From positions 1 to 60,302 of the forward strand of contig JBGUWL010000147.1 in assembly GCA_045221075.1 (NCBI GenBank): a stretch of DNA of 60,302 nucleotides, given 5' to 3'. The stretch is from Acutalibacteraceae bacterium. Lineage in GTDB: Bacteria > Bacillota > Clostridia > Oscillospirales > Acutalibacteraceae. The number at the start of each line of letters is the position of its first letter. Positions within the stretch are counted from its first letter, which is position 1. The notes beneath the pieces were generated by a model. It searched no databases and was not told the origin of the DNA. It saw only the letters and a list, made by a program, of their open reading frames with translations. Made by a program: the position numbers and the translations under genes. Below, in pieces: positions 14,777 through 32,491 of the stretch.

Positions 14777-14807
14777 CAAAAAACAGCCGCACCCGAAGGT
14801 GCGGCTG
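14777..14807 (-). terminator. Terminator of the giant pilin-like gene
   Basis: Minor-strand read: CAGCCGCACC-TTCG-GGTGCGGCTG followed by TTTTTT. It lies 22 nt after the stop. Confidence 0.75.
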
Positions 14808-14828: not shown

Positions 14829-17800
14829 TCAGTTGCTGTACGTGGGTTTCTTAAGAGATCCGCCTGTGCCTGTACCGCCTTCGTTAGCAGTAGCACGGCC
14901 GATGTACTTAACATGGAGGAAGCTCTTCCAGTAAGTCTCGTCATAGAGATCCGCAATATACTTCGAGTTGTTGTTGCTCTTCTCAATGAGATACTTACCT
15001 TCACGGATACCGAAGTTATGGATCTTACCCATCTCATCACGGTACTTGACCGCGATGTCGGTCCTGAACTCTACAATCATACTGTTGGCAGTATTATCAC
15101 AGCTGTAGAGATAGAAGTGTGCTCTGTTAAGTGACTTTGAAGCACCGTCCAGTGTACCCTCAAATGCAAACTTGAACTCGGTTGCATACATCTTCACGGT
15201 AGGCTTGGTATAGAGAGGATCCGTAGAATCCCATCTGAAGCTAAGACCCTTGTTAGAGAAGAAGTCATAACGAATGGTAGAAGCTGCGAGGTTACCGCTG
15301 TCAGCAGTGATGTTGACATAGGATCCGTTGGGTGCAGTATTTGTACCGGACTGGAAGGTGAATCCGTTGTGCCATGTTGTAGAAGCGTCAAATACTTTTC
15401 CTGCTCCGATAGTCTTTCCATTAAGATCAGCCTCGCCCTCCACATAGTCACCTATGTTCTTGGACTGGGTGAAGTAGTTCTTTGCAGCCTGGCTGAACAG
15501 GTTGATCTTTCCGCTACCATATACAGGTGAGTCTTCATTCTGCTTAACATCGGCATTATCGAAGAAGTAGGAGCCTGCCTTGATAACATAGGAATCACCG
15601 CCAAAAAGTTCAACTGTTGCCGTGGTGTTGAACAGAAGAGTCATAGACTGATAGGTATTGCTGGAGCTCTTCTTCATGTTGTACATCTGGGTTTCAGAAG
15701 CAGTATCCTGAACAAAGATATCCGTTGTGATCTCACGGTAGTCAGAGGTTGTATTCTTTGACCAGTAGGGGTTGCTGGCAGTGTCAACATAAACCCATAC
15801 TTCATCCATATTGATCTCACTCTTGGACTTGCCGCAGGGTTTATAGGAGGAATCTGTACGGCTCTTTTCCAGGAACTCTACGTTGTAGATGGTGTCTACG
15901 CCGGGATGCAGGGTGATACAGGGATATCTTTCGGGGTTGTACTCTGTCAGCTTTTCTTCCTTGAAACCGGTAACAGAAGAAGAAAGGGTATAACGTACCT
16001 TGAAGTTAGAGCCTTCATCGACCTTCTTCTGGGCATCGTAGAATATCAGGATGATACCGCCTTCAGATTCTGTCTCAAGTCCGTCTATTGCTCTCTTAAG
16101 ATTATCAATTGCAGATATGAGCTGAGCGTTGGTGCTGTCGTTGAGGAAGACTTCTTCTGCAGCAGCCATCTTTCTCTTGAGAGACTCCATAGAGTCATTG
16201 GTGTACCTTCTTGACATAAGACCGCTGGCAAGGTATTCGGGATAATTTCCTCCGCCGCCGCCGTGGATCTTATGGTTAGTCATATAGCTATTACTCAGAG
16301 GAGCGGAAATAGCAGATCTGGCGTCTCCAAGCAAACTATACAGTGTGGTATAGTTTGTGAGCCTTGCTTCGATAGTGTTCAGCGCACTATATGCATCGCC
16401 CTCTGACCAGCTATCAACATTTGTGGTAATAAAGAATGTACCGCCTGATGTCTCCTTGATCGTTGAATAATTGCTGTACATATTAAGCAGACCATTGGAA
16501 TAGTAACGCTGTGAGGAAGAAGAAATACCGCCTTCATCGTTGTACTGACCGATAAGGTTGCAGCCATAGTAGCTGGAACGCAGCTTCTGAATGGCCTTTT
16601 TCAGTTTCATCTGGTCAGATTCAAATTCCACCCATGCACCCTTTGCGCCGTATTCGTCATCAGCCTCGGGATCAAAGAGAAGCATAGAACCTCCGCGGAG
16701 TGATGTTTTGAATTCCATCGGTGTGGATGTACCGCCTTCTGCGGGCTTATTAACATTAAAGGTAATGAAGGGAGAATTCTTCGAAATATTATTGAGATAA
16801 TAATAATTCGTATGACCGTATCTTGTAAGATGGTTGGTCATATTAACGGGCTGAGGATCACTGATGAAAGGTCCGTTTACCGTAGCGGTGAGGTTTGACC
16901 ATCCTTCGGGCAGTCTGAAATATACAGTCAGATTATCACCGATCTGATCCTCTTCCGGATCAAAGGTGTAGAGGTTGAGATTCTGATAGTGACCTGAGCC
17001 GCCGTTGTAGTTTGAAAGCATTTCAAGCCATACGTCTCCCACCGCATTCTTCACTATCTTGGTCTGGGTGGTCGGACTGGAGGGGTTCATACCGGTAAGG
17101 GTAAAGGTATAGGTTGCTTTTGAAGATACGGGGATCTTGAAGTCATACCAGTCAAAGTAGGGGCTGAGATCAGCAAGACCGAGACGTCCGTCGGACTCTT
17201 CGTTTCCGTTGGTACCGCCGAAGCGGTTGCCTGAACCGATTATATGTTTGTTGGAGTTCAGCTTGTTACCCTCGCCGTATACATCCATATAAGACTTATT
17301 CTGTACACGGACCTTGAATCCACCTACAAACGCCATCTTATAATCTGTTGCGTTATAGTCGGCTTCGTTAACTCCGGGCTGGCTATAGGTTCCGCCGCCT
17401 GTACCGCCGGTGCTGCCGCCGGTGCCTCCGGGATTGCCGCTGGGCCACGGCTGCATATCATGAGCGCTGCCCGATCCGCCGGTAAAGTAGTAGCCGTTGC
17501 CAACTGTAAAGGATATATCCTTTGTCTGCTTATCGGATGTACCGTTGTTTACGACAAATTTCTTTGCAGCAGCAGGAGGCTTGATCTTATAAACGGTCTG
17601 GTTATACTCATTGGTCTTATAAACTTCGGTAAGTTGATAGCCCGGGAAGGCCGCGCCTACTGTTGTGCCATCAAAGAAATAGATATGAAGGTTCTCAAAG
17701 TTGTAGTTGTTAGTAATGTAGATATAGTCATCTGCATAAGTTACATCCGGTGTAACGACCTGGTTGGCGATTTTTACAGAGCCGACGGTGTGTTTACCGC

Positions 17801-20800
17801 CTGACGTACCGTTTTTATAAAAATCAAACCCGTTCATCTTACCGTTTTCAATGTCAATATTTACTGTCTGCTTGCCGTTATTATTATTATTGAAGATCAC
17901 ATACTTTGCGCCTGAAGGAGGAATAACCTTATAGATTTTCTGTCCTTGATCGTTAGTCTTGAAAAATTCAACACTTCTGCCCGGCCAGTCATATCCGAAC
18001 TTATTTTCACCGTTCCAGAAATATGCTTTTACGGTTCCATACAGACCATAGCCGTCATCATTATCGGTAAAGTAGATATAGTCACCGTCTGCATACATAT
18101 CACCGATAAGAAGGTCATCTTCATTTGCAAGAGTGGGTTCGGGCTCGGGCTCGGGATCCTCCGGAGGAGCCTCTACCACGCCGTACTTGGGATAAACATC
18201 ATCGGTAGGAATAACTGTGGGAGCTTCGGTGCCGATATTTCTGTCAAGGAAGATATACTCACCGGGTTCAAGCTTTCCGACAGTATAGGGTACTATTTCA
18301 GGATCACCGCCTGTAGCAGAGCCTGTTACGGTAGATATCTTGAATTCGCTGTTCTTATACTCCTGAACATAAACATACTTGAATACAGTGTAGGGATCTT
18401 CAAATGTAGACATTACCAGTTCATCGTTGATCTCGCCTCTTAAAGCGTCACCCTGAAGTGTTGAATAAACGGTAACCATTTTTCCGAAGGAGACAACGTT
18501 AATGTCATTGATAACAGCCACAAGATTATCGTCTGCAACGTTGCTGAGTTTTATGGTTGAGCCGGCAGTAACGCCACTTGGAAGAATAACCTTTACGGCA
18601 ACACTGCTGTACAGTTCTTTACTGATATCCACATAACTGCACTTATATTCGGGCTTGCCCCATGATACGAAATCAGTATCATCAGCGGGAGTAGAGGTCA
18701 TTGAACCTTCGGGATAACGTTCAACGGTCATTCCGTTGGTACCAACGGAATTGTCAATGATCCAGAGTCTGACGCTCTTATTTTCAGTTTTGATCTGAGA
18801 GATAGTGCCCGCAGGCTTCTTAATGGTATAAGCCTTGATTGCAGCATCAAGTTTATCTGCAAGTGCATTAAGCTCTGACTGGGTGGTAACACCGCCTGAC
18901 TTGCCGCTTACTGCATCCGAAACAGCTTTGTCAAGTGCTGTAAAGGTATCTTCTGTGCAGTCGACCTTTTCGGGATTCTCCGCAGTAGGCAGAAGGGTTC
19001 TTGCCTGGTCGATGAGAGGATCAATAACAGATGTATCAAGTGACACAACGGCATGCTCAGTCAGTGCAGTATACTTGTCCTGAAGATTATTCTTTGCGTT
19101 ATCGATAGCTGTCTGACTTGTAAACTTCAGATTCTTTGCAGCTCTTGCCTCATCGTAAGCAGTCTTGAATTCTGAAAGATAAGGCTCCTCAAAATCTGAA
19201 GAGGTTTTGTTATAGAACTCGAAAGTAAGGTCAAGGAGAGCCTTCAGATCGTTCCTGTAGATCCTTGAGTTGTTCATCAACTGAAGATCCTGGGACAGAG
19301 CTGTACATACGCTGTTTACTTCCTCGATCGTAGTACTGGAGTAATCAGCCTGAATCGTCTTTGCACGCTGGTATGCGGAGGGCTCAGGAGTACCTTCGCC
19401 TATAAATTTCTTGTAGGTATCATAGTCGAAGGAACCGTTTGCTTCCATTGCGGTCACGGTATTGTCACCGGATACAACAAGGCTGTTGAGCCATGTAAGA
19501 TCATCACCGGTAACACCGCGGGGTACGAGCTTGTGTTCACCTGTACCGTTAATAATGTCAAGGATGACTTTTTCAGCTGCATAATACTTTTCATCAGCCT
19601 GCTGGATCCTCAGGGAATCTGTAGGACCGGGCTGATTGACAATGAAGTTCTTATCATCAAGAAGAGCACGAGCGGCAATAATCGCATCGGTCAGATACTG
19701 GAAAGACTCGGGTGTATACTCGTTGGGGTCATAACGTCCTGCCTCTGAACAGGTTTTGTTCAGAGCGTTACGGCCGCTGGTGGAGTTAAGACCAACATCA
19801 CCATAGCGGACACTGGGTGTTGCCTTTGTGGTGAAGTCGGCGATCTTTGCATGGATGGTTACATATTCATCCTTGCTTCTGTTTTTGCCAAGAGATGTCA
19901 TTGCATCGTTCTCAGAGCTGTATTTCTCAAGGCTGGAGCCGTTAAAAACAAAGAAGAACTCTTTGTGCTCTGAGCTGTTCTCAATACCGTAAGCGGACTT
20001 TGCGGATCCCACGGCGGAAAATGTAATATTGAAGTCTTTGTTTGTTTCTATATTTGCTGCCCACCAACCGCAGCCTTCGTACTCCATGGTAATGGGGCCG
20101 GCAGTTTTGTTGCCGGAATGGAGGAAGCTCTGGCCTGTGATTGCAGATCCGTCTGCATTGGCATAAGAAACAGAGGGAGCCGCAATGGAGGGTGTAACTG
20201 CATTGTCATCGATTCCCTTCATACGGAAGTGTACGGTTGTCTTGGGGTTCTTTACATATACAAGAACGGTGTCTTCAAGACCCTTCTTTCCGTCCCAACC
20301 GGGGCCCTTGAAATACTGGGTGTAATAGGTTCCGTTAGGTCCGCCGGACTTGGGTGTGTCAAAGAACTCAAAGTAGATGTTTCTGTCGCTGGAGTCAAGG
20401 TACCACAGATGGAACATTTCGTTGGTCTGTGAGTCATAGACGTTCCATGCGCCGCCCGTTGTTCCGGGAGGACAGAGAAGTGAGCCCTGACGTGCGAAAA
20501 TGATATTGAACCACGGAACCAGTCCGGGTTTAACGAAATACTCACCTGTGAACCAGCCGTTACCCATATCGGCAAGAATACCGTTAGGACCCTGCTGGAG
20601 CTTTTTGGATTCGTCATCGGTGAGACGCCACTCTGCATTAGGCTTTACTGCCTCGCTGGAGGTATCATCGTTGAGCTTTTGGACCTCATTTCTGCTTTTT
20701 ATAACAGAGTCATAGAAATAGCTGTTGTCGCCGTTGCTTTCATCGTAATCTCTGTAAACACCGTTATCCACATCATCACGGTATGTCCAGATGTAGTAAG

Positions 20801-21380
20801 TAAGCTCATAGTCCATGCCTGTGGGCTTTTTAACGTTAAGGGTAATACTCGGATCATATCCGTCGCTGCCCTTGCCGCGTGATCCCGGGGGGATCGTAAG
20901 TCTGTTGGGGCCTGAGGAACCAACAGTAAAGGAGACGGAGAGACGAGCCATCTTATTCTTGTTGCCATAGGCATCGGAATAGCGGCTGTATGCCGTCATG
21001 TGAAGTGTGGCAGGATTGGAGTTCACGGCCTGAACGAACTCAACATGAACGTATGTTACAGCGTTTTTGGTTTCGTTAACGTTCTTGGTAATATCAGCGC
21101 CCTGTGAAGTGGTACCGCTGGGATCTTTCATTACCATGTACTCAACAGAAATGGTTGAATAATCATCGACATTTGTCGAATAGTAAGACCGGGCATATTC
21201 CAACGCGCTCTTTACATTCATATAAGCCTGTCTTCCGCTGATATCAACCGATGTTGTCGACATACTGTTAAGTGCGATAAACAGAAGCGAACTTGATATC
21301 AGTATCAGAAAGCAGCTTATTGCAATGGCAAGCGGCAAGGAAAAACCCTTTTTACTGTTTTTTACAACAGTATTCTGCAT
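14829..21380 (-). CDS. Giant (2183-aa) modular pilin-like protein; putative pilus-tip adhesin with CBM25/26-like and FIVAR-like modules
   Basis: The N-terminus KKG|FSLPLAIAISCFLILISSSLLFIAL is a prepilin-type leader plus hydrophobic helix, with Leu instead of Glu at +5. It starts 25 nt after the second minor pilin gene. Internal modules are described in the findings. Confidence 0.8.
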   Translation of the reverse strand: MQNTVVKNSKKGFSLPLAIAISCFLILISSSLLFIALNSMSTTSVDISGRQAYMNVKSALEYARSYYSTNVDDYSTISVEYMVMKDPSGTTSQGADITKNVNETKNAVTYVHVEFVQAVNSNPATLHMTAYSRYSDAYGNKNKMARLSVSFTVGSSGPNRLTIPPGSRGKGSDGYDPSITLNVKKPTGMDYELTYYIWTYRDDVDNGVYRDYDESNGDNSYFYDSVIKSRNEVQKLNDDTSSEAVKPNAEWRLTDDESKKLQQGPNGILADMGNGWFTGEYFVKPGLVPWFNIIFARQGSLLCPPGTTGGAWNVYDSQTNEMFHLWYLDSSDRNIYFEFFDTPKSGGPNGTYYTQYFKGPGWDGKKGLEDTVLVYVKNPKTTVHFRMKGIDDNAVTPSIAAPSVSYANADGSAITGQSFLHSGNKTAGPITMEYEGCGWWAANIETNKDFNITFSAVGSAKSAYGIENSSEHKEFFFVFNGSSLEKYSSENDAMTSLGKNRSKDEYVTIHAKIADFTTKATPSVRYGDVGLNSTSGRNALNKTCSEAGRYDPNEYTPESFQYLTDAIIAARALLDDKNFIVNQPGPTDSLRIQQADEKYYAAEKVILDIINGTGEHKLVPRGVTGDDLTWLNSLVVSGDNTVTAMEANGSFDYDTYKKFIGEGTPEPSAYQRAKTIQADYSSTTIEEVNSVCTALSQDLQLMNNSRIYRNDLKALLDLTFEFYNKTSSDFEEPYLSEFKTAYDEARAAKNLKFTSQTAIDNAKNNLQDKYTALTEHAVVSLDTSVIDPLIDQARTLLPTAENPEKVDCTEDTFTALDKAVSDAVSGKSGGVTTQSELNALADKLDAAIKAYTIKKPAGTISQIKTENKSVRLWIIDNSVGTNGMTVERYPEGSMTSTPADDTDFVSWGKPEYKCSYVDISKELYSSVAVKVILPSGVTAGSTIKLSNVADDNLVAVINDINVVSFGKMVTVYSTLQGDALRGEINDELVMSTFEDPYTVFKYVYVQEYKNSEFKISTVTGSATGGDPEIVPYTVGKLEPGEYIFLDRNIGTEAPTVIPTDDVYPKYGVVEAPPEDPEPEPEPTLANEDDLLIGDMYADGDYIYFTDNDDGYGLYGTVKAYFWNGENKFGYDWPGRSVEFFKTNDQGQKIYKVIPPSGAKYVIFNNNNNGKQTVNIDIENGKMNGFDFYKNGTSGGKHTVGSVKIANQVVTPDVTYADDYIYITNNYNFENLHIYFFDGTTVGAAFPGYQLTEVYKTNEYNQTVYKIKPPAAAKKFVVNNGTSDKQTKDISFTVGNGYYFTGGSGSAHDMQPWPSGNPGGTGGSTGGTGGGTYSQPGVNEADYNATDYKMAFVGGFKVRVQNKSYMDVYGEGNKLNSNKHIIGSGNRFGGTNGNEESDGRLGLADLSPYFDWYDFKIPVSSKATYTFTLTGMNPSSPTTQTKIVKNAVGDVWLEMLSNYNGGSGHYQNLNLYTFDPEEDQIGDNLTVYFRLPEGWSNLTATVNGPFISDPQPVNMTNHLTRYGHTNYYYLNNISKNSPFITFNVNKPAEGGTSTPMEFKTSLRGGSMLLFDPEADDEYGAKGAWVEFESDQMKLKKAIQKLRSSYYGCNLIGQYNDEGGISSSSQRYYSNGLLNMYSNYSTIKETSGGTFFITTNVDSWSEGDAYSALNTIEARLTNYTTLYSLLGDARSAISAPLSNSYMTNHKIHGGGGGNYPEYLASGLMSRRYTNDSMESLKRKMAAAEEVFLNDSTNAQLISAIDNLKRAIDGLETESEGGIILIFYDAQKKVDEGSNFKVRYTLSSSVTGFKEEKLTEYNPERYPCITLHPGVDTIYNVEFLEKSRTDSSYKPCGKSKSEINMDEVWVYVDTASNPYWSKNTTSDYREITTDIFVQDTASETQMYNMKKSSSNTYQSMTLLFNTTATVELFGGDSYVIKAGSYFFDNADVKQNEDSPVYGSGKINLFSQAAKNYFTQSKNIGDYVEGEADLNGKTIGAGKVFDASTTWHNGFTFQSGTNTAPNGSYVNITADSGNLAASTIRYDFFSNKGLSFRWDSTDPLYTKPTVKMYATEFKFAFEGTLDGASKSLNRAHFYLYSCDNTANSMIVEFRTDIAVKYRDEMGKIHNFGIREGKYLIEKSNNNSKYIADLYDETYWKSFLHVKYIGRATANEGGTGTGGSLKKPTYSN

Positions 21381-21405: not shown

Positions 21406-22014
21406 TTACTGAACAAAAGCTATAGCCTTTGTTGTACTGTCATTCTCGATCTTACATACATCACCGACATCATCAAACGAAGTGTTTATCTGGGTCATAG
21501 GAGTATCGGAATCCGCATTGTTCATAACGATGGTTCCGTCAAGCTTATAACCCTCGTTCATCTCGATCACATAATCGACGTACATGAAGCACTTTTCGGA
21601 CAACGAATCATCCTTCTGAGGCTTATGCTTCTTGACCTGTACCTGAACACTCTTTGCCTTATGATAGGAGATCGTCGTTACAACGGGAGGCTGTCCGATA
21701 GCGGTAACCTCACTTCTCACGGTCTTCAATGTTCCGTCGTTATCAAAATAAATGTAATACGCTGAGACATCGTTCAGCGGAACGGAACTGGAATTGACAA
21801 GGGACACTGAAGCGCCTACCTTTGATGCGCTGAGAAGAAAATCCTCTATTTCAAGGGCGTTATCCTGTTCGGTTGAGGTTGTCTGTGCAGTGGAGTAATT
21901 CTTGATAGCCTGCGCCACCATGCCGACTCCCAGTCCGGCAACAATACTGAGCACGCCTATGGTAACTACAAGCTCTACGAGAGTAAAACCACTCTTAGAT
22001 CTGAATTTGTTCAT
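21406..22014 (-). CDS. Minor pilin (prepilin-type N-terminal cleavage/methylation domain)
   Basis: The N-terminus MNKFRSKSG|FTLVELVVTIGVLSIVAG has the canonical G/F-x-x-x-E motif. Confidence 0.8.
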   Translation of the reverse strand: MNKFRSKSGFTLVELVVTIGVLSIVAGLGVGMVAQAIKNYSTAQTTSTEQDNALEIEDFLLSASKVGASVSLVNSSSVPLNDVSAYYIYFDNDGTLKTVRSEVTAIGQPPVVTTISYHKAKSVQVQVKKHKPQKDDSLSEKCFMYVDYVIEMNEGYKLDGTIVMNNADSDTPMTQINTSFDDVGDVCKIENDSTTKAIAFVQ

Positions 22015-22032
22015 GATTTACTACCCCCTTCA

Positions 22033-22578
22033 TCAGCCCGGATCCTGGTGCTCATAGGGAATGAACGAATGGTTCACCAAGGATCCCCTTGAACTGTAAA
22101 CATAAGACTGAACATAGATTCCCTTTATGGTGTACTGTTTTGCGCCCTTCTGCACCTTGCTGGATGCATCAAGATCGATGGTGTACTGTGTCTCTACTCC
22201 TGCAGCAGGGAATACATTCTTGTCATAGTAAAGAACAGTGCTGTCGAAAGTCTTTGCAGCAGCGTGTACAGCATTGCCCGGATCCGAATTCGGGCTCTTG
22301 TTGCTGGCAGCGCCGAAGAAATACTCCTGAGCCTCTGCCTTATCGTAGAATCCCAGCTCGCTGATGCTCTGAAACAGAAGTTCATTCAGCGAACCGCCTT
22401 CAACAGCGCTTTTGTTCACGTCTGCATTATAGAGAGTTGTCGAGTAGCCGTTTGTCATTGCGCTGAGAGTTGATCCAAAAACAATGACAATGATAGTTAT
22501 GCCGACAACAAGCTCTACCAGAGACATACCTTTTTTGGAACGCAGCTTCGGGATCTTTTGCCGTAATCTTTTTTTCAT
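22033..22578 (-). CDS. Minor pilin (prepilin-type N-terminal cleavage/methylation domain)
   Basis: The N-terminus ...LRSKKG|MSLVELVVGITIIVIVFG has Glu5 present. Confidence 0.8.
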   Translation of the reverse strand: MKKRLRQKIPKLRSKKGMSLVELVVGITIIVIVFGSTLSAMTNGYSTTLYNADVNKSAVEGGSLNELLFQSISELGFYDKAEAQEYFFGAASNKSPNSDPGNAVHAAAKTFDSTVLYYDKNVFPAAGVETQYTIDLDASSKVQKGAKQYTIKGIYVQSYVYSSRGSLVNHSFIPYEHQDPG

Positions 22579-22894: not shown

Positions 22895-24151
22895 CTATGA
22901 GGCTGCGGAATCGGCTGCGCCGCCAACCAGACTGTACATACCGAACATGGGAAGGATCATGGAGATTACCAGTGTTGCAACAACTACACCAATAACAACA
23001 GTCATGATAGGAGTCATCATGTCAGTAAGCTTCTGGGTAGACTCATCTGTCTGGGATTCAAACAGATCAGCCATCTTGTGAAGTGAATCGCCAAGCATAC
23101 CGGATTCCTCACCGACTCGGATCATCGAAACGAGGATCGCATCAAAAACAGGATGCTTTGCCATAGCGTCGTGAATGGTAACACCGATCTGTACGTCGTC
23201 AAGGACTGCCTGGACCTTTTCACGGACAAACAGGTTAGGAACAACGTCTCTTGCAAGACCCATGGCCTTATGGATCGGGATACCGGCATCTGTCAGAGTT
23301 GACATCAGTCGGCAGAACCTTGCAAGGGAACTCTGACGGATAATGGGACCAACAAGCGGGATCTTAAGCTGAACCTTCGCCCATCCCATGGCAAAATCCG
23401 CATTGGTTTTCTTCAATGTTCTGAGTCCGATAACGATACCGGCTATAACAATGATTATCAGCCACCACCAATTTATAAGCAGGTCTGAGAAGCCCATCAT
23501 GAACTTTGTAAGTCCCGGCAGATCGCCGCCGAAGGCCTCATAAACGCCCGCAAAGGTGGGAAGAACGAATACTGTAAGGATGATAACAACGATAATAACG
23601 AGAGCCATCAGGAAAGCAGGATACATAAGAGCGCCTCTGATCTTACCGGTCAGAGCCATATCCTTCTTACATATCAATGCGCACTGCTCAAAGGCTTCGT
23701 CAAGTCGACCGTTTGCCTCACCGGCTTCAACAATGCTGATATAGATAGGGGGGAAACCGGCAAAGTTTCTCATTGCCTGAGAGAGAGTAAAACCACTGTA
23801 GAGATTCTCGTTGATCTCTCGGAGGATCTTTCTCATGCTGACGTCCTTTTCGGAGTCGATCATGATCTGCATCGAAAGAGACAGGTTGATACCGGCCTTC
23901 ATCATCATACCCAGCTGGTTCATAATCATAAGAAGCTTCTTGGGTTTAATCTTTTTGGTATGGATATCGCCGCCCAGGTCCATCTGCCAGATACTGGTGG
24001 GTTCATCATCTCCGCCGCCGACGCCGACGAGGTCCTGAACAACGAGTCCTTTTTCACGGAGTATATTGGTAGCCTCGGCCTGGGAATCAGCTTCGATGGT
24101 ACCTTCTTTTTTCTGGTTTCTGGCGTTCATCGCCACATATTTATACTTCAA
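22895..24151 (-). CDS. pilC: Type IV pilus platform protein PilC (T2SS F family)
   Basis: 418 aa. It has duplicated GspF-type domains and three TM regions, and sits after pilT/pilB. Confidence 0.9.
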   Translation of the reverse strand: MKYKYVAMNARNQKKEGTIEADSQAEATNILREKGLVVQDLVGVGGGDDEPTSIWQMDLGGDIHTKKIKPKKLLMIMNQLGMMMKAGINLSLSMQIMIDSEKDVSMRKILREINENLYSGFTLSQAMRNFAGFPPIYISIVEAGEANGRLDEAFEQCALICKKDMALTGKIRGALMYPAFLMALVIIVVIILTVFVLPTFAGVYEAFGGDLPGLTKFMMGFSDLLINWWWLIIIVIAGIVIGLRTLKKTNADFAMGWAKVQLKIPLVGPIIRQSSLARFCRLMSTLTDAGIPIHKAMGLARDVVPNLFVREKVQAVLDDVQIGVTIHDAMAKHPVFDAILVSMIRVGEESGMLGDSLHKMADLFESQTDESTQKLTDMMTPIMTVVIGVVVATLVISMILPMFGMYSLVGGAADSAAS

Positions 24152-24165
24152 AGCTTTTCACTCCC

Positions 24166-25212
24166 TTATCTTCTTGCGTCAGTATCGCCGATATCAAAGT
24201 TCCATGCTCTTGCGATCTGTTCGGTGATAAGTCCCTGAGCAAGGAGGTTATCGATACTCTTGCTCATGGTGATCATACCGTACTGCTGACCAAGCTGGAT
24301 AGACTGCTGGATATTTGCTATCTTGTTTTCACGGATAAGGTTACTTATAGCGGTGGTAACGAACATGATCTCAAACGCAGCAACACGTCCGCCGGTTGCA
24401 CGGGGAAGAAGTCTCTGAGAGATAACAGCCTTAAGTGAAGTAGAAAGCTGTACACGGATCTGCTGCTGCTGATCCGGCGGGAAGATATCAACAAGACGGT
24501 CGATGGTCTTTGCAGCACCCTCTGTATGTACGGTTGAGAATACAAGGTGACCTGTCTCGGTTGCGGTAAGGGCGATCTGGATTGACTCACGGTCACGCAT
24601 CTCACCTACGAGGATGATATCGGGGTCCTCACGCATTGCAGCACGAAGAGCCATAGGATACGAACGGCTGTCAAGACCGATCTCTCTCTGGTTAATAATG
24701 CAGCGCTTGGGGGTATGAAGGAACTCAACAGGGTCTTCAATAGTGATAATATGGCGGCTCTTGTACTTGTTGATCTCATTGATAAGAGCAGCCAGAGTTG
24801 TAGATTTACCGGAACCGGTAGGTCCGCACATCAGAACAAGACCAGAGTTAAGGTCAAGGGTCTTTCTGATGGAATTCGGCAGGTTGAGGGTCGAAAGCTC
24901 AGGAACCACGCTGTTGATAACACGAAGTACAAGAGCTGTGCCGTTACGCTGTCTGAAAGCGTTGGCTCTGAAACGGCCGCACTCACCGATCTCTACGGCG
25001 GCGTCGGCCTCACCTGTCTGAAGGAAGGTCTCAAATCTTGACTTGTTGAGCACCGCCTTGATAATAGCGGTTACCTCTGCTTCATTCAGCGCAGGGTCAT
25101 TGGTAAAGAACACATTACCATGAAGACGATAAGCCGGATGGTTACCGGATGCAATATGAATGTCGGAAGCACCCTTTGTTACGGCTTCTTTGACAAGGCT
25201 GTAAAAATCCAC
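24166..25212 (-). CDS. pilT: Twitching-motility retraction ATPase PilT
   Basis: 348 aa with a GTG start. Motifs are ASDIHI, Walker A GPTGSGKSTT and GHLVFSTVHT, with PilT-size architecture and no N-terminal extension. Confidence 0.88.
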   Translation of the reverse strand: MDFYSLVKEAVTKGASDIHIASGNHPAYRLHGNVFFTNDPALNEAEVTAIIKAVLNKSRFETFLQTGEADAAVEIGECGRFRANAFRQRNGTALVLRVINSVVPELSTLNLPNSIRKTLDLNSGLVLMCGPTGSGKSTTLAALINEINKYKSRHIITIEDPVEFLHTPKRCIINQREIGLDSRSYPMALRAAMREDPDIILVGEMRDRESIQIALTATETGHLVFSTVHTEGAAKTIDRLVDIFPPDQQQQIRVQLSTSLKAVISQRLLPRATGGRVAAFEIMFVTTAISNLIRENKIANIQQSIQLGQQYGMITMSKSIDNLLAQGLITEQIARAWNFDIGDTDARR

Positions 25213-25327: not shown

Positions 25328-27034
25328 TCAGTCTGTGTTATTGATGGTCATATCAACAAACTCTTCATAGGAGGTAAGTCCCTGAAGAACGTTTCGTCTT
25401 ACGTTTTCCTTCATCGGTATCATGCCCTCTTTTAAGGCCAACTCACGGATCTCGTCAGTACTCTTGTTTTCCGTAATGGCACGCTTAAGAGTGGTTGTGA
25501 GCAGCATGATCTCATGAACGGCGATACGTCCCTTATAACCCTTTTTGTTGCATTTCTCGCAGCCTTTTCTGCGATAGAGGGTGATATCCTCATTCTGATC
25601 AAGGTTAAGAGCGATCCGCTCATTCTGATCCGGCGTGTAAGCCTCTTTACATTCAACGCAGAGACGACGCGCCAGTTTCTGAGCGATAATACCGAGAAGA
25701 GCAGAGGAAACCATGTAAGGTTCAATTCCCATATCTACAAGACGCGCCACAGAGCTGGGGGCGTCGTAGGTATGCAGTGTTGAAAGAACCAAGTGACCTG
25801 TGATAGCTGCCTGTACCGCAATACCGGCGGTCTCACCGTCACGGATCTCACCGACCATGATGATATCGGGGTCCTGACGAAGAATGCTTCGCAGGGCTGC
25901 CGCAAAGGTCATGCCGGCTTTTTCGTTGGTTTGAACCTGGGTGATTCCTTCCTGCAGCATTTCGACAGGGTCCTCAACCGTGATGATATTGATATCTTCA
26001 CTTTTGACCTCATTGAGAGCCGTATAAAGGGTCGTCGATTTACCGGAACCGGTAGCACCGGTTACAAGGATGATTCCACGGTTACTTTTGATAAGATGGT
26101 TGAATTTTTCAAGGTTCTCCGGCAGGAAGCCTATGCTTTCCTTTTTAAGCTCCATGCCGAGAGAGGTGGTAATACGCATAACGATCTTCTCACCATATAC
26201 GCTGGGGAGAACCGAAATACGGAAGTCTATTTCTTTTCCTGCAACACGGTAGTTAATACGACCGTCCTGAGGAATACGTTTTTCTGCGATGTTCATGTTA
26301 CCGATGAACTTGATACGGGATGTTACCGAGGGGATGAGCTCAGGGCTTGTCTCCATATAGATCTGCAGCTTACCGTCGATACGGAAGCGGATCCTCAGGC
26401 ATTTTTCCATAGGCTCCACATGAATATCGGAGCATTTTGCAAAGATAGCCTCTTCGATCATGGTATTTACAAAACGGATGATAGGCTGGTCATTACCGTT
26501 GGCATCCTGTTTTGCAGCCTCTTCAGCCTCCTGCTGAGCCTTGGATTTACCGCCCTTTGACTCAAGGAATTCCTTTGCGTCATCGATAGCCTTCTGGGCG
26601 GCATAAAGCTCACGGAGCTTTGCCGAGATCTTTGAAGGTTCGGCGATGACCGGCTGGATCTTCAACTTAGTGGCAATGGATATATCCTTGATTCCTTTAT
26701 AGTTAAGGGGATCGCCGATGGCAACGGTGAGGATACGTCCTTCCTGTTCGATAGGAACGACCATATTCTTCTGAGCCATATCCTCAGGGATAAGGCCTCC
26801 CAGTTCATCGGGAATAGTAACTGAATCAAGATCAATGTAAGGCATAAAGAGCTGTTTTTCCAGCGCTCTGCACACCTGCTGCTCGGTTACTATCTTGTCT
26901 TCAATAAGAATGTCGGCAATACGGCGTTTTTCATCAGAGCTACGCTGTTTTTCCAGCACAGCCTCAAGCTGTTCTTCCGTAATGTCGCCAGAATTGATCA
27001 AAATTTGTCCGATTTTCAAGTTGCCGGCTTTCAT
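25328..27034 (-). CDS. pilB: Type IV pilus assembly ATPase PilB (GspE family) with an MshEN-like N-domain
   Basis: 568 aa with AAGGAG SD. Motifs are Walker A GATGSGKST and the C-terminal tetracysteine CVECK...CEKC. The N-terminal tandem 24-aa motifs are described in the findings. Confidence 0.9.
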   Translation of the reverse strand: MKAGNLKIGQILINSGDITEEQLEAVLEKQRSSDEKRRIADILIEDKIVTEQQVCRALEKQLFMPYIDLDSVTIPDELGGLIPEDMAQKNMVVPIEQEGRILTVAIGDPLNYKGIKDISIATKLKIQPVIAEPSKISAKLRELYAAQKAIDDAKEFLESKGGKSKAQQEAEEAAKQDANGNDQPIIRFVNTMIEEAIFAKCSDIHVEPMEKCLRIRFRIDGKLQIYMETSPELIPSVTSRIKFIGNMNIAEKRIPQDGRINYRVAGKEIDFRISVLPSVYGEKIVMRITTSLGMELKKESIGFLPENLEKFNHLIKSNRGIILVTGATGSGKSTTLYTALNEVKSEDINIITVEDPVEMLQEGITQVQTNEKAGMTFAAALRSILRQDPDIIMVGEIRDGETAGIAVQAAITGHLVLSTLHTYDAPSSVARLVDMGIEPYMVSSALLGIIAQKLARRLCVECKEAYTPDQNERIALNLDQNEDITLYRRKGCEKCNKKGYKGRIAVHEIMLLTTTLKRAITENKSTDEIRELALKEGMIPMKENVRRNVLQGLTSYEEFVDMTINNTD

Positions 27035-27058: not shown

Positions 27059-28000
27059 TTAGAATAGTTTCAGATACATTTCAACTAAGCCAAAAATAAA
27101 GTCATAAAAACAAACATAGCATATCAGCGAAAATGTGATATAAGGACCAAAGGCGAGGTACGAACCGCCCGAGGTCTCCTCCTGTGTATCCGCAGAAGTC
27201 TGCTCTCCGGCATCAGTCTCCGCTTCCACGGCAGCGGCAGCATCCTTCACGGAAACGCTTGCTTTTGTGTCACCGTCAGCGGTACCCTCTGGGTCAGCAT
27301 CATCAGCCGCAGACTGATCCTGCTGAGGAGCTTTCCTGCCGATTATGCGGACCACGATCAGTATCACCACAAAACATATCATTGCGCTTATCATAGATAT
27401 GATAAACGACAGTATGGTTCCGGGAAAACCCGTTGCAATACCGACGGCCGCAAAGAGCTTTACGTCTCCGAAGCCCATTCCGCCTCGCTTGTATACTAAC
27501 ATTCCGATAAGGTCAATAAATATCATGACCCCGGCGCCAATAGCGGCACCCGCCAGAGGTGACCACCAGGCGGTATGGAGTATGCCGTAGCCCCTTGCGA
27601 TGTCATAAATGCTTATGGCAAGGGCAAGCAATCCCAGTGCTATGGTGAACTGGTCCGGAATGATGGTATATTTGATATCACAGATAGCTATCATAAGGGA
27701 TACTATTATCATCAGTGAGAAAACCACAAAATAGATATCGTAGCCCTTGTTGAACTGCAGCCTGCAGCAAACCAGGCAGACGGCAGTCACTATGGACATA
27801 ACAATACCCGATCCGGCATATCTGACACGGTTTCCGGAGAGAAGCTCCGGCGAAGGGGTCTCGTTGTAATCGCACAGCCATTTGGCCGGGATACGGTTGA
27901 TGACCCTGTAGTACAGCCATGTCAGGAGCACGCCGGACAGGACACAGACGGCAGTCCATATAACGCCGGCTGTGCTTGTCAGGTATTCAAAAGGCTGCAT
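27059..28000 (-). CDS. pilD: Prepilin peptidase PilD (peptidase A24)
   Basis: Polytopic membrane protein. Aspartate motifs are IIPDQF and GMGFGDVKL, with C-terminal AFGPYI. It contains a 58-aa acidic insertion. Confidence 0.85.
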   Translation of the reverse strand: MQPFEYLTSTAGVIWTAVCVLSGVLLTWLYYRVINRIPAKWLCDYNETPSPELLSGNRVRYAGSGIVMSIVTAVCLVCCRLQFNKGYDIYFVVFSLMIIVSLMIAICDIKYTIIPDQFTIALGLLALAISIYDIARGYGILHTAWWSPLAGAAIGAGVMIFIDLIGMLVYKRGGMGFGDVKLFAAVGIATGFPGTILSFIISMISAMICFVVILIVVRIIGRKAPQQDQSAADDADPEGTADGDTKASVSVKDAAAAVEAETDAGEQTSADTQEETSGGSYLAFGPYITFSLICYVCFYDFIFGLVEMYLKLF

Positions 28001-28021: not shown

Positions 28022-28702
28022 TCAGGTTGAGCTTTGGGAAGAAGATACAGCCGCCTCAAGATCAACCATCTCAAAGTAATACAGACTCATGGAAACCGTA
28101 TAGTCATACTTTGCGGTCTTGCTGGTTGTGGTAGCAACACTGGTCACTGAATTATCTTCTCCGGAAGTGGTGCCGGCAGCGGAATTGCTGGCGATGTAAG
28201 GCTCTGCATCGATTCCGTTGATGTAGTATGCACCGTCGGCCTTCAGCTCAAGATAATCGAGAGACTTCTTAAGGTCTTCCTTTGTTCCCGAGAATCTGAA
28301 GTTGATGCTGGTTGAGAAAAGACGTCCGCCTTCAACGGTAGTTCTTCCAAGAGCGTCCTCGTTACCTGTGCTGATAGACAGCGAGGTGATCTCGAACTTG
28401 AGATTCTTGAGGATGGATCTGATCTCGTTAGGAGTCTTGGTAGCGTTTGAATAGAGGATGGGGTTCTTTTTCTGATATTCTTCCATCATGCTGGCGATAT
28501 TGCTCTCAACAGTGGCAGAATTGTCCAGATAAGAATTGTAGTAATTGATCTTGCTTGTGGCAGAAGCATGGTTGTCCTGATAACCGTCATAATTCTGTAT
28601 AAAGGGTACCTGCACAGCGATCAGAAAGATGATACTCATTACCAGTATGACCGCTATTGCAATAATAAAGCCTGAAATTTTGAGCTGCTTTTTATTATTC
28701 AT
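28022..28702 (-). CDS. PilO-like bitopic pilus assembly protein
   Basis: GGAGGT SD. It has a short cytoplasmic N-terminus, one TM (ISGFIIAIAVILVMSIIFLIAV) and a ~170-aa outside domain. The call rests on position between pilM/N and pilD, with no motif-level support. Confidence 0.5.
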   Translation of the reverse strand: MNNKKQLKISGFIIAIAVILVMSIIFLIAVQVPFIQNYDGYQDNHASATSKINYYNSYLDNSATVESNIASMMEEYQKKNPILYSNATKTPNEIRSILKNLKFEITSLSISTGNEDALGRTTVEGGRLFSTSINFRFSGTKEDLKKSLDYLELKADGAYYINGIDAEPYIASNSAAGTTSGEDNSVTSVATTTSKTAKYDYTVSMSLYYFEMVDLEAAVSSSQSST

Positions 28703-28785
28703 TATTGTTTACCTCCGTCAAGAATTGATCTTTGCTTTAGATCCTTTGGGCTTTCCGATGTGAAACCGTTCCGTCAGTCAGTCCG

Positions 28786-30636: not shown

Positions 30637-30913
30637 AAACACACCACACTCTTAAAAATTTTGTACGATTGTTGTTGTTTCATCCGACAAATATCAGAAC
30701 CGCATCATGCTCTGCAAAAGCCGCAGGACATAGGTGCAGTTATAATATCCCTTTTGTTATCTTATCACAAAAAAATATATATTTCAATAATTAATTTTTG
30801 ATTCTTGGTATTTTGTGCATATAGTTAGTTTTTAAAGCTATTATTTATGCAATAAGACACCTGACTATGTTTTTTCCCACAAACAGACACGGACCTTTCT
30901 GTTTTGTCTTGTT

Positions 30914-30952
30914 CAAAAAAACAAAGACCCGGAAATCAATTCCGGGCCTTTG
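30914..30952 (-). terminator. Terminator after pilA1
   Basis: Minus strand reads CAAAGGCCCGGA-ATTGATT-TCCGGGTCTTTG followed by TTTTTTT. Confidence 0.75.
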
Positions 30953-30981
30953 TATGTAGCTGTTAAATAATCCGTCAGGAA

Positions 30982-31464
30982 TTATTTGTAACCAAGATCA
31001 GACATCTTTGTGGTCAGAGCAACTACGTTAGTAGCAGCTGCGGGCTTGCCGCTGTCGTCCTTACCATAGATTGTGCCGGTGTTCTTGTCATAAACGAAGT
31101 CGCCAACCTTGCCCTTAAGGGTATCAAGACCTGCATAGGTGATAGCGTCGGTAACAGTAAGAGCCAGAGCCTTGGTCTTCTTTGCAGAAGCGGAAGCATT
31201 GGCAGGCGGCAGACCGGTGAAGGCCTTGGGTGAGCTGGAGTTCAGAGTGCCTGAAACAACTTCAGCGTACATGTCCTTGCATGCGTTACTGAGTGAAGAA
31301 GCGTCTGACTTCTGCTGTGATTCGTTAGCGCTGTTGATGATACCGATAACTGCGGGGATAGCGATTGCAGCCAGGATACCGAGGATAGCGATAACAACTA
31401 CGAGTTCAACGAGGGTGAAACCTTTTTTGCTCTGCTTAGCGAGCAGTTTCTGCTGGAGAGTCAT
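30982..31464 (-). CDS. pilA: Type IV major pilin (paralog 1)
   Basis: The N-terminus MTLQQKLLAKQSKKG|FTLVELVVVIAILGILAAIAIPAV is a canonical class III signal peptide. 160 aa, monocistronic, with its own promoter and terminator. Confidence 0.88.
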   Translation of the reverse strand: MTLQQKLLAKQSKKGFTLVELVVVIAILGILAAIAIPAVIGIINSANESQQKSDASSLSNACKDMYAEVVSGTLNSSSPKAFTGLPPANASASAKKTKALALTVTDAITYAGLDTLKGKVGDFVYDKNTGTIYGKDDSGKPAAATNVVALTTKMSDLGYK

Positions 31465-31548
31465 GATGAATTACCTCTTTCTTTAATAAATTTTTTTTTC
31501 GAACCCGATCCTCTGAAGGGTGGAGCACCGTGTTCATTTGTTGATTAT

Positions 31549-31577
31549 ATATTAACTCTTTATTAACAAAATGTCAA
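31549..31577 (-). promoter_or_regulatory. Candidate promoter of pilA1
   Basis: Minus strand reads TTGACA-N17-TAATAT, preceded by A-tract-rich DNA. The predicted leader is about 80 nt. Confidence 0.55.
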
Positions 31578-31934
31578 TACTTTTTTTCGAAATTTTTTCA
31601 AATTTTTAGTAAAACATAAGCTTGTATTTTTGTGCACACTGCCAAGTGTTTGGCTGCGAGCAGTTAAACATTACCCCTTTTTAGTTTGTATTGCACCACA
31701 CGTCGATGAATTTTTGTTTTATATGACGAATTCTATTTATGAATCATTTGTTAACTGTTAATATCGTGTTCATATTTAATCGATTTTTCTTTAGAAATTT
31801 TCAATATTTTTTTAAAATTTCCTTCCCGATTTCTGTTCAGAAACCCTTTTGGCAGCATTTCCCTTCAAAAATCAGGTTCACATTTACGCAAAATCACCGG
31901 TCTTTACCATCCCGGAAACCGGACCGGTTCCCGT

Positions 31935-31962
31935 CAAAAAAGGAGAGCCGCCCGGCTCTCCT
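31935..31962 (-). terminator. Terminator after pilA2
   Basis: Minus strand reads GGAGAGCCG-GGC-GGCTCTCC followed by TTTTTT. Confidence 0.75.
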
Positions 31963-31970
31963 CTGCAGAT

Positions 31971-32432: not shown

Positions 32433-32491
32433 ATTAAGCCCTCCTGTCATAATCTCACTTCATAACGCCGTCAACTGCCCCTTTTTATATT

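Follow-up and report, generated by a model that had tools for sequence, protein, structure and literature searches.

Tandem CBM26 modules encoded by the last gene of a type IV pilus operon suggest starch capture by a retractable pilus in a rumen relative of Ruminococcus bromii

Results

Gene organization of the locus

The window (the whole stretch of DNA analysed, 60,302 nucleotides) originates from a rumen relative of Ruminococcus bromii and carries a complete type IVa pilus operon, including the retraction ATPase PilT, in which a giant gene is the last member. From Pfam and NCBIfam assignments, the order pilA-pilA-p618-p226-PilD-PilB-PilT-PilC-minor pilin-minor pilin-giant was obtained, and the same order was found in 22-34 related loci. 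The following features are relevant here:

28022..32450, minus strand: upstream part of the operon, encoding two conserved proteins (226 and 618 aa; synteny) and two pilins (160 and 159 aa; N_methyl)
27059..28000, minus strand: prepilin peptidase PilD (Pfam/NCBIfam)
25328..27034, minus strand: PilB (Pfam/NCBIfam)
24166..25212, minus strand: PilT (Pfam/NCBIfam)
22895..24151, minus strand: PilC (Pfam/NCBIfam)
21406..22578, minus strand: two minor pilin genes (202 and 181 aa) immediately upstream of the giant gene (Pfam N_methyl, TIGR02532)
14829..21380, minus strand: giant gene (2183 aa), putative PilX-like modular pilin or tip adhesin, last in the operon (open reading frame, homologues)
21345..21380, minus strand: putative class III (prepilin) leader MQNTVVKNSKKG, predicted cleavage after Gly12 (alignment with the neighbours' leaders)
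20925..21344, minus strand: pilin-like module, aa 13-152 (AF2, weak PilX_N signal)
18093..18188, minus strand: Pro/Glu-rich linker (…APPEDPEPEPEPTLANEDD…), which opens the variable cassette (sequence, family conservation)
17811..18092, minus strand: CBM26 module 1, aa 1097-1190 (Pfam, PDB matches, AF2, Foldseek)
17739..17810, minus strand: inter-module linker, aa 1191-1214 (pLDDT <50 at model residues 122-129)
17481..17738, minus strand: CBM26 module 2, aa 1215-1300 (second Pfam stretch, AF2)
17349..17480, minus strand: Gly/Thr-rich linker (…GNPGGTGGSTGGTGGGT…), which closes the cassette (sequence, family conservation)
14832..17348, minus strand: conserved C-terminal region, aa 1345-2183 (aligned in 84 of 86 homologues)
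14784..14807, minus strand: intrinsic terminator hairpin directly after the giant gene (10-bp stem with 8 GC, then T6)
1025..1756, minus strand: surface lipoprotein with one C-terminal CBM26 (Pfam, translation, alignment)

The giant gene begins 25 nt past the minor pilin gene, and its ATG is preceded at 8 nt by a ribosome-binding site. Both minor pilins, which are syntenic in 33-34 related loci, carry canonical G↓F/M-T/S-L-V-E motifs, and for the 226-aa and 618-aa proteins no Pfam family match was obtained. A GH77-GT35 maltodextrin enzyme is also encoded in the window. No GH13 amylase is encoded within it, and we count this against a function of the pilus in starch capture.

Identity of the tandem modules

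The first-pass annotation had placed two tandem starch-binding-type modules of the CBM25/26 kind at 17481..18095 (minus strand). In-frame translation of this segment (205 codons, 0 stops) gave the peptide quoted there, and the two adjacent modules, each about 90 aa long, are located inside the 2183-aa reading frame. When we searched Pfam, CBM26 (PF16738) matched the di-module in two stretches with 47.2 bits (E 2.5e-12) and the whole giant protein with 43.8 bits. Both scores exceed the gathering score of 28.1 bits, and CBM25 gave no match at E<1. The call of an alpha-glucan-binding type thus holds, and Pfam, PDB matches and Foldseek narrow the family to CBM26 specifically. Among solved structures, the closest relatives by sequence were the CBM26 modules of R. 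bromii Amy16 (E 3.4e-31), Amy10 (E 1.6e-14), Amy4 and Sas6 and of E. rectale Amy13K (E 3.4e-9). The AF2 model of the di-module consists of two beta-sandwiches (pLDDT 77.7 overall, ~86-93 for module 1 and ~72-85 for module 2), and Foldseek retrieved with this model the E. rectale CBM26 tandem 6b15 as best match (E 8.6e-8), with CBM41 and CBM25 coming next. A profile of the modules retrieved 4460 clusters among 1.84 billion representatives. The best 10 matches outside the family that we scanned were all multi-CBM26 proteins, seven with a dockerin and two with a GH13 catalytic domain.

The lipoprotein has a lipobox (VSG↓C) and an (STTDE)n linker, and its C-terminal domain scored 33.1 bits against Pfam CBM26 (E 6.4e-8), which is also above the gathering score. 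The similarity of this domain to both giant-protein modules, which had been noticed before, was confirmed by BLASTP (E 1.4e-4 and 2.6e-4, ~30% identity), and the lipoprotein carries an insertion of ~25 residues between the aromatic pair and the WPG motif. Its gene is located ~13 kb away, and synteny with the pilus locus is lacking in relatives (no lipoprotein match in 68 loci).

Taken together, these data indicate three CBM26 starch-binding modules, two in the giant protein and one at the C-terminus of the lipoprotein. A chance or low-complexity resemblance is contradicted by the Pfam, PDB and Foldseek statistics, and an artefact of a mis-called giant reading frame by the intact frame, an identical giant protein in an independent record (ENA assembly ERZ1029114) and 86 full-length homologues; we found no point in favour of either, and consider both refuted.

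Ligand-binding residues

In RbCBM26, the ligand stacks on W63 and Y55 and is hydrogen-bonded via Y53 and Q103. W63 is the counterpart of W32 in LaCBM26, the mutation of which abolishes binding. The motif that the first-pass annotation had named as a hallmark of such modules corresponds, by alignment, to these experimentally defined residues. The canonical ligand residues are retained in module 1 (Y1120, W1122, W1132 of the WPG motif, Q1171) and in the lipoprotein (Y120, W122, W153, Q197). The platform of module 2 is degenerate (Y1234, F1236, F1245 of an FPG motif, Q1285). In module 2, phenylalanine replaces the Trp equivalent to W32 of LaCBM26, a caveat that was absent from the earlier annotation, and since both stacking positions are occupied by Phe, the function of module 2 is less certain. 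The WPG motif of module 1 is invariant in 11 clade members, and the corresponding Trp position of module 2 varies among homologues (W/F/Y/M/A).

Binding of starch or glycogen by the pilus may reasonably be inferred. RbCBM26 itself binds oligosaccharides, and its binding to granular starch was not detectable; an isolated CBM26 module can be a weak binder, which we count against starch capture by the pilus.

The giant-protein family

Homologues form a family of at least 86 giant full-length proteins, all of them unannotated, which is confined to R. bromii-related Acutalibacteraceae of rumen and gut. The ends of these proteins are conserved and enclose a central, linker-flanked cassette with 1-4 CBM26-type modules. 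Family-wide conservation falls immediately after P1064, the last invariant residue, and returns at aa ~1345. The C-terminal region (aa 1345-2183) had no Pfam or PDB sequence match, further beta-rich domains are predicted beyond the modules (AF2), and neither dockerin nor cohesin was detected by Pfam in the giant protein. The only cultured family member, P. massiliensis, is piliated and degrades resistant starch (PMC8726730). Its homologue has no detectable CBM26 module, and for this reason its phenotype is not directly informative on the cassette.

Cassette modules drift in the more distant homologues: the strict WPG signature is kept in 38 of the 86 proteins and Pfam CBM26 is mostly sub-threshold in the distant cassettes. 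This drift, together with the degenerate platform of module 2, its variable Trp position and the further beta-rich domains, would fit modules that are CBM26 by descent and no longer target dietary starch. They might instead recognize another alpha-glucan or glycan (bacterial glycogen-like exopolysaccharide or capsule in cell-cell aggregation, host or fungal glycans) or serve mainly as structural beta-sandwich spacers. We regard this as improbable, since module 1 retains all four mapped ligand residues with a WPG motif that is invariant in the clade, its nearest relatives beyond the family belong to amylosome-type proteins in which CBM26 arrays occur with dockerin or GH13 domains, and lineage and genomic context are starch-oriented.

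The prepilin-like N-terminus

The N-terminus of the giant protein (KKG↓FSLP) aligns in register with the leaders of the adjacent minor pilins (SKSG↓FTLVE, SKKG↓MSLVE), and G12, L15, P16 and A18 are invariant or nearly so across the family. The pilin-like module that follows comprises a hydrophobic alpha1 helix and then beta-sheet (AF2: helices 14-38 and 49-70, then strands up to aa 152), and position 5 of the mature protein is Leu instead of Glu. The only recurring family hint for the giant proteins was a weak match to Pfam PilX_N below the gathering score, seen in 2 of 21 members and in the P. massiliensis homologue (E 4.6e-4). Pfam N_methyl did not match the giant protein, which counts against a pilin, and Foldseek with the N-terminal model (pLDDT only 66) gave no significant match and no pilin. 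The earlier description as a pilus protein is supported at the level of prediction by operon position, prepilin-like N-terminus and helix-plus-sheet module. The tip complex of type IV pili is capped by a subunit without Glu5 (review PMC10191384), and because the giant protein lacks Glu5 we propose that it may be this capping subunit.

Alternatively, the protein could be a starch adhesin that is expressed together with the pilus without becoming part of it, with the CBM26 modules tethering starch at the cell surface. In that case, its N-terminus, cleaved or uncleaved, would anchor it in the membrane, or else it would be set free and associate non-covalently with pili or cell wall. There is a precedent in the cellulose-binding tapirins encoded beside a type IV pilus locus (bioRxiv 10.1101/359786); the missing N_methyl and Foldseek pilin matches, a size that is extreme for a pilin, and more distant paralogues that sit away from any pilus genes point in the same direction. 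However, even these orphan paralogues retain the prepilin-like N-terminus. The register with the neighbours' cleavage motif, the near-invariance of G12, L15 and P16, PilX_N as sole recurring hint, and the loss of Glu5 directly after two Glu5-containing minor pilins, as expected for a tip cap, also argue against such an adhesin. On balance, we consider it unlikely, albeit less so than the loss of starch as target.

Discussion

CBM26 modules in the product of the gene that ends a type IV pilus operon point to starch capture by this bacterium by means of a retractable pilus. Probably, the tandem cassette resides inside a giant modular minor pilin of the PilX/GspK type, which is displayed at the pilus tip and tethers cells to alpha-glucan. 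According to this model, PilD would cut the giant protein after Gly12, and the Glu5-less protein would act as cap, prime assembly with the two Glu5 minor pilins encoded upstream and come to occupy the type IVa pilus tip. The extracellular part of ~2000 residues, including FIVAR-like helical spacers, might keep the CBM26 pair off the filament. Module 1, and perhaps module 2, would bind alpha-1,4-glucan of starch granules or soluble alpha-glucan via the Tyr/Trp/Trp platform and Gln. PilT-driven retraction could then draw the cell onto its substrate; at that point, the amylases of the cell and the lipoprotein CBM26 would take over. A further point against the model is that a subunit of 230 kDa would have to pass through the Gram-positive wall while sitting at the tip of the pilus. 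In the literature searched, we found no description of such a starch-grabbing retractable pilus.

Several known systems share parts of this arrangement. With the CBM26 modules of the R. bromii amylosome (Amy16, Amy10, Amy4, Sas6) and E. rectale Amy13K, the giant-protein modules have Pfam family and predicted fold in common. The Tyr-x-Tyr/Trp … Trp-Pro-Gly … Gln ligand residues recur in module 1 and the lipoprotein, and the tandem arrangement in Amy16 and the CBMbc part of Amy13K. In contrast to the amylosome modules, those of the giant protein belong to a pilin-like protein of a pilus operon, which is neither a GH13 enzyme nor a dockerin protein. Caldicellulosiruptor tapirins are likewise non-catalytic polysaccharide adhesins encoded beside a Gram-positive type IV pilus locus in a polysaccharide degrader, but are unrelated in sequence; they bind cellulose via a unique beta-helix fold and no pilin-like N-terminus has been described for them (bioRxiv 10.1101/359786).

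The PilY1/PilC tip adhesins of diderm type IVa pili resemble the giant protein in being large (>1000 aa), modular and encoded with minor pilins, and in combining a variable adhesive part with a conserved remainder. PilY1, however, is a non-pilin defined by its C-terminal beta-propeller (IPR008707/PF05567), which Pfam did not detect in the giant protein. With the GspK/PilX/PilK caps, the protein shares a prepilin-like leader without Glu5, the position as largest minor pilin encoded after Glu5 minor pilins, a weak PilX_N signal and the expected role in filament capping and priming; the homology suggested here concerns the N-terminal helix. GspK and PilX comprise ~200-350 aa and are not known to bear glycan-binding modules.

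It is established that modular pilins can display adhesive or lectin modules as grafts, examples being PilB (vWA module) and PilC (lectin module) of Streptococcus sanguinis (PMC8179133, PMC9934059). Like these, the giant protein combines a pilin module at the N-terminus with ligand-binding modules grafted behind it, and its gene accompanies those of minor pilins in a PilT-containing type IVa pilus operon of a monoderm. It differs in that the described modular pilins carry a canonical IPR012902/N_methyl signature with Glu5 (Leu at +5 and no N_methyl match here) and a C-terminal graft, whereas the CBM26 modules form an internal cassette between large conserved regions. With 2183 aa, it is also ~4-5x larger than the described modular pilins (~460-490 aa), the largest multi-domain example in the published survey having 860 aa (PMC8179133). 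The text supplementary files of that survey yielded no entry for CBM26 or starch; carbohydrate-binding grafts are known for this class of pilins, and a location at the pilus tip has been proposed for it.

The tandem modules belong to CBM26

When we translated the minus strand between positions 17481 and 18095, we found 205 open codons lying within a single reading frame of 2183 amino acids (14829..21380), and the peptide quoted in the first-pass annotation, which had proposed CBM25/26-like starch-binding modules for this pilus-locus protein, is the exact translation of this stretch. An HMM seeded from the three modules of the window (two in this giant protein, one in a lipoprotein) gave the positions of modules 1 and 2, which are listed here together with the lipoprotein.

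17811..18092, minus strand: CBM26 module 1, aa 1097-1190 of the giant protein
17481..17738, minus strand: CBM26 module 2, aa 1215-1300 of the giant protein
1025..1756, minus strand: 243-aa lipoprotein with the N-terminus MRKITKYGMAVFALMLAISVSG↓C, an (STTDE)n linker and then CBM26

The Pfam profile CBM26 (PF16738, "starch-binding module 26") matched the di-module formed by modules 1 and 2 in two stretches with 47.2 bits (E 2.5e-12), the whole giant protein with 43.8 bits and the lipoprotein with 33.1 bits (E 6.4e-8). All three queries exceeded the curated gathering score of 28.1 bits, and the CBM25/26 call was thus narrowed to CBM26. The likeness of the tandem modules to the lipoprotein domain was also borne out, since both modules of the giant protein were matched by the lipoprotein in BLASTP at about 30% identity (E ~1e-4) and both proteins carry CBM26. 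NCBIfam gave no match for either protein. Because the open frame, the Pfam and BLASTP matches and the HMM placement agree, coordinates and observation are confirmed far beyond chance, and we consider the probability of a chance resemblance or an artefact to be negligible.

When a profile of 22 module sequences was compared with the PDB, the best match was Ruminococcus bromii Amy16 (9qf9, E 3.4e-31), and further sequence matches involved R. bromii Amy10 (9qf8) and Amy4 (9qf3), Sas6 (7uwu) and the CBM26 tandem of E. rectale Amy13K (6b15/6b3p). CBM26 modules are borne by R. bromii amylosome enzymes (PMC12663171; PMC4611034). AlphaFold2 modeling of aa 1085-1310 from an 11-sequence alignment (mean pLDDT 77.7) yielded two beta-sandwiches with a disordered linker between them. 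Among PDB entries, Foldseek placed this model closest to "CBMbc (family CBM26) from E. rectale Amy13K" (6b15, E 8.6e-8), with tandem structures of CBM41 and CBM25 next in rank, and a CBM25/26-type beta-sandwich fold is predicted for both modules.

With the module profile, a word-indexed search for homologues returned one protein only, and an exhaustive HMM search was used instead, which yielded 4460 clusters among 1.84 billion representatives. All ten of the top matches scanned outside the giant-protein family proved to be strong CBM26 proteins with several copies of the module (E 1e-41 to 1e-111), of which seven also have a dockerin and two have a catalytic domain of GH13. We regard the assignment of the modules to CBM26 as solid.

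The lipoprotein gene lies about 13 kb from the giant gene and shows no synteny with the pilus locus in relatives. Its low-complexity (STTDE)n linker (1456..1600, minus strand, aa ~53-100) separates the lipobox from CBM26, and a spurious repetitive reading frame (1476..1730) runs on the strand opposite the linker.

Conservation of the ligand residues

In RbCBM26 of Sas6, W63 and Y55 provide the stacking surface for cyclodextrin, while its hydrogen bonds come from Y53, K101 and Q103, and mutation of W32 in LaCBM26, the counterpart of W63, abolished binding (bioRxiv 10.1101/2022.11.20.514607). We mapped these residues by HMM alignment to Sas6, which was in register with the motifs of the window.

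Table. Counterparts of RbCBM26 ligand residues in the modules of the window
Y53: module 1, Y1120; lipoprotein, Y120; module 2, Y1234
Y55: module 1, W1122; lipoprotein, W122; module 2, F1236
W63: module 1, W1132; lipoprotein, W153; module 2, F1245
Q103: module 1, Q1171; lipoprotein, Q197; module 2, Q1285

It can be seen that module 1 and the lipoprotein module retain all four mapped residues (Y/W/W/Q), whereas module 2 has Phe at both stacking positions, which keeps the aromatic character. Conservation of the ligand aromatics, a point raised in the first-pass annotation, therefore holds in full for module 1 and the lipoprotein, and in module 2 for the aromatic character of the positions. Among ten close homologues compared, the WPG of module 1 was invariant, and the module 2 equivalent of its Trp varied (W, F, Y, M or A). 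Because of its full residue set and the invariant WPG, module 1 is a canonical CBM26; the two Phe residues and the variable Trp position mark module 2 as a diverged copy of uncertain binding competence.

This residue pattern suggests that module 1, and perhaps module 2, may bind starch or malto-oligosaccharides. Alternatively, the modules might have taken on a different glycan as ligand or a spacer function, with which the divergence of module 2 would be compatible; in view of the complete ligand set of module 1, we consider this improbable.

The giant gene closes a type IVa pilus operon

Upstream of the giant gene, on the same strand, we found a complete type IVa pilus operon, of which the giant gene is the last member. 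In the order of transcription it comprises the following features.

31971..32450, minus strand: pilin (Pfam/NCBIfam)
30982..31464, minus strand: pilin (Pfam/NCBIfam)
28786..30642, minus strand: conserved 618-aa protein, no assigned family
28022..28702, minus strand: conserved 226-aa protein, no assigned family
27059..28000, minus strand: PilD, prepilin peptidase (Pfam/NCBIfam)
25328..27034, minus strand: PilB (MshEN / c-di-GMP motif)
24166..25212, minus strand: PilT, retraction ATPase (TIGR01420, 442 bits)
22895..24151, minus strand: PilC (Pfam/NCBIfam)
22033..22578, minus strand: minor pilin, canonical G↓(F/M)(T/S)LVE
21406..22014, minus strand: minor pilin, canonical G↓(F/M)(T/S)LVE
14829..21380, minus strand: giant gene, starting 25 nt past the preceding stop
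14807..14784, minus strand: GC-rich terminator hairpin (10 bp) directly after the giant gene

The giant gene is preceded by a ribosome-binding site, and the order pilA…PilD-PilB-PilT-PilC-minor-minor-giant is kept in 22-34 loci of closer homologues. The genes of the 226-aa and 618-aa proteins, between the pilin genes and PilD, are syntenic in about 22 loci. Neither protein matched Pfam at E<=0.01, nor did the 226-aa protein match NCBIfam, and we presume that the two take the place of PilM/N/O. In the extension ATPase PilB, an MshEN domain and a match to the c-di-GMP-binding motif model NF053729 (E 9e-14) hint at a possible control of piliation by c-di-GMP.

A prepilin-like N-terminus that lacks Glu5

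The giant protein begins with MQNTVVKNSKKG↓FSLPLAIAISCFLILISSSLLFIAL, a short positively charged leader ending in Gly and followed by a hydrophobic stretch of about 20 residues. This leader is in register with SKSG↓FTLVE and SKKG↓MSLVE, the leaders of the two minor pilins encoded next to it, and G12 is nearly invariant across the family of the giant protein. Mature position 5 is Leu, not Glu, and neither N_methyl (PF07963) nor TIGR02532 matched the giant protein. Tip-capping subunits are a known exception to Glu5 (review PMC10191384), and the Leu therefore argues against an ordinary pilin and not against a capping minor pilin. A capping role would fit the gene order, in which the Glu5-less pilin-like protein comes after two minor pilins that have Glu5.

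In an AlphaFold2 model of aa 1-520 (pLDDT 66), helices at aa 14-38 and 49-70 precede a beta-sheet that extends to aa 152, and a disordered linker and beta-rich domains lie beyond. The predicted N-terminal topology is pilin-like. Foldseek found no significant match of this model in the PDB, so that the pilin fold is proposed from topology and motif only. PilX_N (PF14341) did not match the giant protein of the window, matched two of 21 N-termini of the family (E~0.09) and reached 20.5 bits (E 4.6e-4), below the 25.5-bit cut-off, for the homologue of Pseudoruminococcus massiliensis; it is the only recurring family-profile hint for this N-terminus. A word-indexed homologue search with a 165-aa N-terminal profile returned truncated copies of the same family only and linked no annotated minor pilins.

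The unmatched N_methyl models and the lack of a Foldseek match would also suit a tapirin-like surface adhesin that is co-expressed with the pilus and located outside of it. Given the leader in register with those of the minor pilins and the nearly invariant G12, we consider such an adhesin unlikely, and a pilin-like capping subunit remains our preferred reading.

The beta-rich domains (~19860..20850, minus strand, aa ~178-505) show CBM-like patterns (YYIWTY…GNGWFTGEY…WFNIIFA; MEYEGCGWWAANIE) with an invariant YEGCGW; they gave no family match, and their AlphaFold2 confidence was low. A whole-protein profile matched the PDB in the CBM26 region and in a weak FIVAR-like helical stretch (aa ~690-820) and nowhere else, including the C-terminal 840 residues (aa 1345-2183), which had no PDB sequence match. 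The FIVAR-like region would be consistent with a spacer stalk.

A family of giant proteins with a variable central cassette

At least 86 full-length relatives of the giant protein (2000-2900 aa, 27-48% identity) were found, all of them without names, and a cluster look-up of the NCBI-sourced members gave none either. The 67 loci in GTDB species genomes come nearly all from rumen or gut MAGs ("uncultured Ruminococcus sp." or Acutalibacteraceae), with P. massiliensis as the only cultured carrier. An identical giant protein is present in the ENA assembly ERZ1029114.

Conservation is bipartite: residues 1 to ~1064 and ~1345 to 2183 align in about 84 of the 86 homologues, the centre in only about 25-29. 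This centre is a cassette of 120-560 aa with one to four modules; a PEPEPEP linker lies at one end and a GGT-rich linker at the other. In distant members CBM26 was the top and usually the sole Pfam match of the cassette, mostly below threshold. The strict signature [YF]x[YWF]…WPG was found in at least one module of 38/86 proteins. Our iterative module HMM rose from 18 to 64 proteins and had not converged after five rounds, and these 64 of 86 are therefore to be read as carriers of related beta-sandwich modules, not of proven CBM26. The homologues of P. massiliensis and of one further locus (L064) had no detectable module.

In four MAGs, the gene is split across two contigs (L015/L016 in RUG757, L023/L026 in RUG669, L028/L034 in RUG633, L042/L068 in RUG12914). 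The break lies between the conserved N- and C-terminal blocks, a position suggesting that assembly broke down at a cassette that is repetitive or varies between strains. One protein of 2915 aa (P0085) has, in addition to its central module, a CBM26-like module near the C-terminus (aa ~2503-2617), so that module acquisition is not confined to the central cassette.

No genes for pilins or pilus machinery lie ahead of those for the most distant homologues (~29% identity, 2400-2900 aa; L040, L043, L045, L046, L049-L053, L055-L063, L066 and L067). These proteins retain a prepilin-like KxG(F/V/L)(S/T)LP N-terminus and may be orphan alternative tip subunits. In P. massiliensis Marseille-P3876 (L065, 9974..15733), the 1919-aa homologue, which gave the best PilX_N signal and has no CBM26-like module, has pilin genes upstream and the genes for the 618-aa protein, the 226-aa protein and PilD downstream, instead of the single operon of the window.

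Starch context

A starch lifestyle of the lineage is supported by three points: R. bromii is the sister of the host lineage, resistant starch is broken down by P. massiliensis, on which TEM revealed pili (PMC8726730), and the window encodes a GH77-GT35 fusion. The latter is a single 1295-aa reading frame (36337..40224, minus strand) in which a GH77 4-alpha-glucanotransferase (aa 9-474, E 5e-184) is joined to a GT35 alpha-glucan phosphorylase (aa 588-1294, E 1e-287), and it looks like a maltodextrin catabolic unit on one polypeptide. As direct support for the cassette, P. massiliensis fails because its homologue is without the module.

Proposed mechanism

The best-supported model, which we consider probable, is that the Glu5-less giant pilin sits at the pilus tip and that its CBM26 cassette tethers the cell to alpha-glucan. 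PilD would cleave the giant protein after Gly12, and the Glu5-less subunit together with the two minor pilins would prime the filament, with the giant subunit staying at the tip. Its long extracellular part would display the cassette on flexible linkers, module 1 would bind alpha-1,4-glucan, and retraction driven by PilT would bring the cell up against the granule; there the lipoprotein and other CBM26 proteins of the surface might act together with amylases.

A wider reading is tentative when all of its parts are taken jointly, and we rate it as somewhat short of an even chance. Rumen and gut relatives of R. bromii would have a dedicated "starch grappling hook" that can be retracted: a Glu5-less pilin of ~230 kDa, with one to four CBM26-type modules in its linker-flanked central cassette, would cap their type IVa pilus. 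Exchange or diversification of the cassette among strains, and in unlinked orphan paralogues, would retune which alpha-glucan, or other glycan, is captured. If true, this would be a route to resistant starch independent of cohesin-dockerin amylosomes. The idea is biologically appealing and lends itself to testing. What the analysis establishes is the CBM26 identity, the conserved ligand residues, the operon context, the Glu5-less prepilin-like N-terminus and the cassette architecture; PilD processing, the place at the pilus tip, the ligand and the use of retraction are inferred.

Comparison with known systems

CBM26 is a well-known starch module. The first attachment of specialist Firmicutes to insoluble starch granules is understood only in part, and work on it has centred on R. 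bromii amylosomes and Sas proteins. Amylosome-type CBM26 proteins, the closest relatives of the modules outside the family, bear dockerins, whereas Pfam detected neither Dockerin_1 nor cohesin in the giant protein or the lipoprotein, and we rejected an amylosome component. Similarly, PilY1/PilC tip adhesins have a C-terminal beta-propeller (PF05567/IPR008707), and a PilY1-like adhesin was rejected since Pfam detected no propeller in the full protein at E<=1. In Caldicellulosiruptor, attachment to polysaccharides has been associated with type IV pili and with adhesins encoded beside them (bioRxiv 10.1101/359786).

It is well documented that pilins can carry grafted modules for adhesion, among them carbohydrate binders of the lectin type (PMC8179133; PMC9934059), and one survey counted more than 1200 proteins with 264 architectures (PMC8179133). 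The text-form supplementary files of this survey hold no entry for CBM26 or starch, and among type IV pilus proteins our full-text literature search found none described as carrying CBM26 or a module that binds starch. With 2183 aa, the giant protein is about 2.5 times as large as the largest multi-domain pilin noted in the survey (PMC8179133), which would also have missed it for want of the IPR012902 motif. The at least 86 unannotated giant proteins of rumen and gut Acutalibacteraceae form a newly defined family, whose variable cassette may serve as a marker of substrate specialisation. If true, a CBM26 adhesin at the pilus tip would add an active, force-generating capture mechanism and carry the idea of modular pilins over to foraging on dietary polysaccharides, with a far larger subunit than any described.
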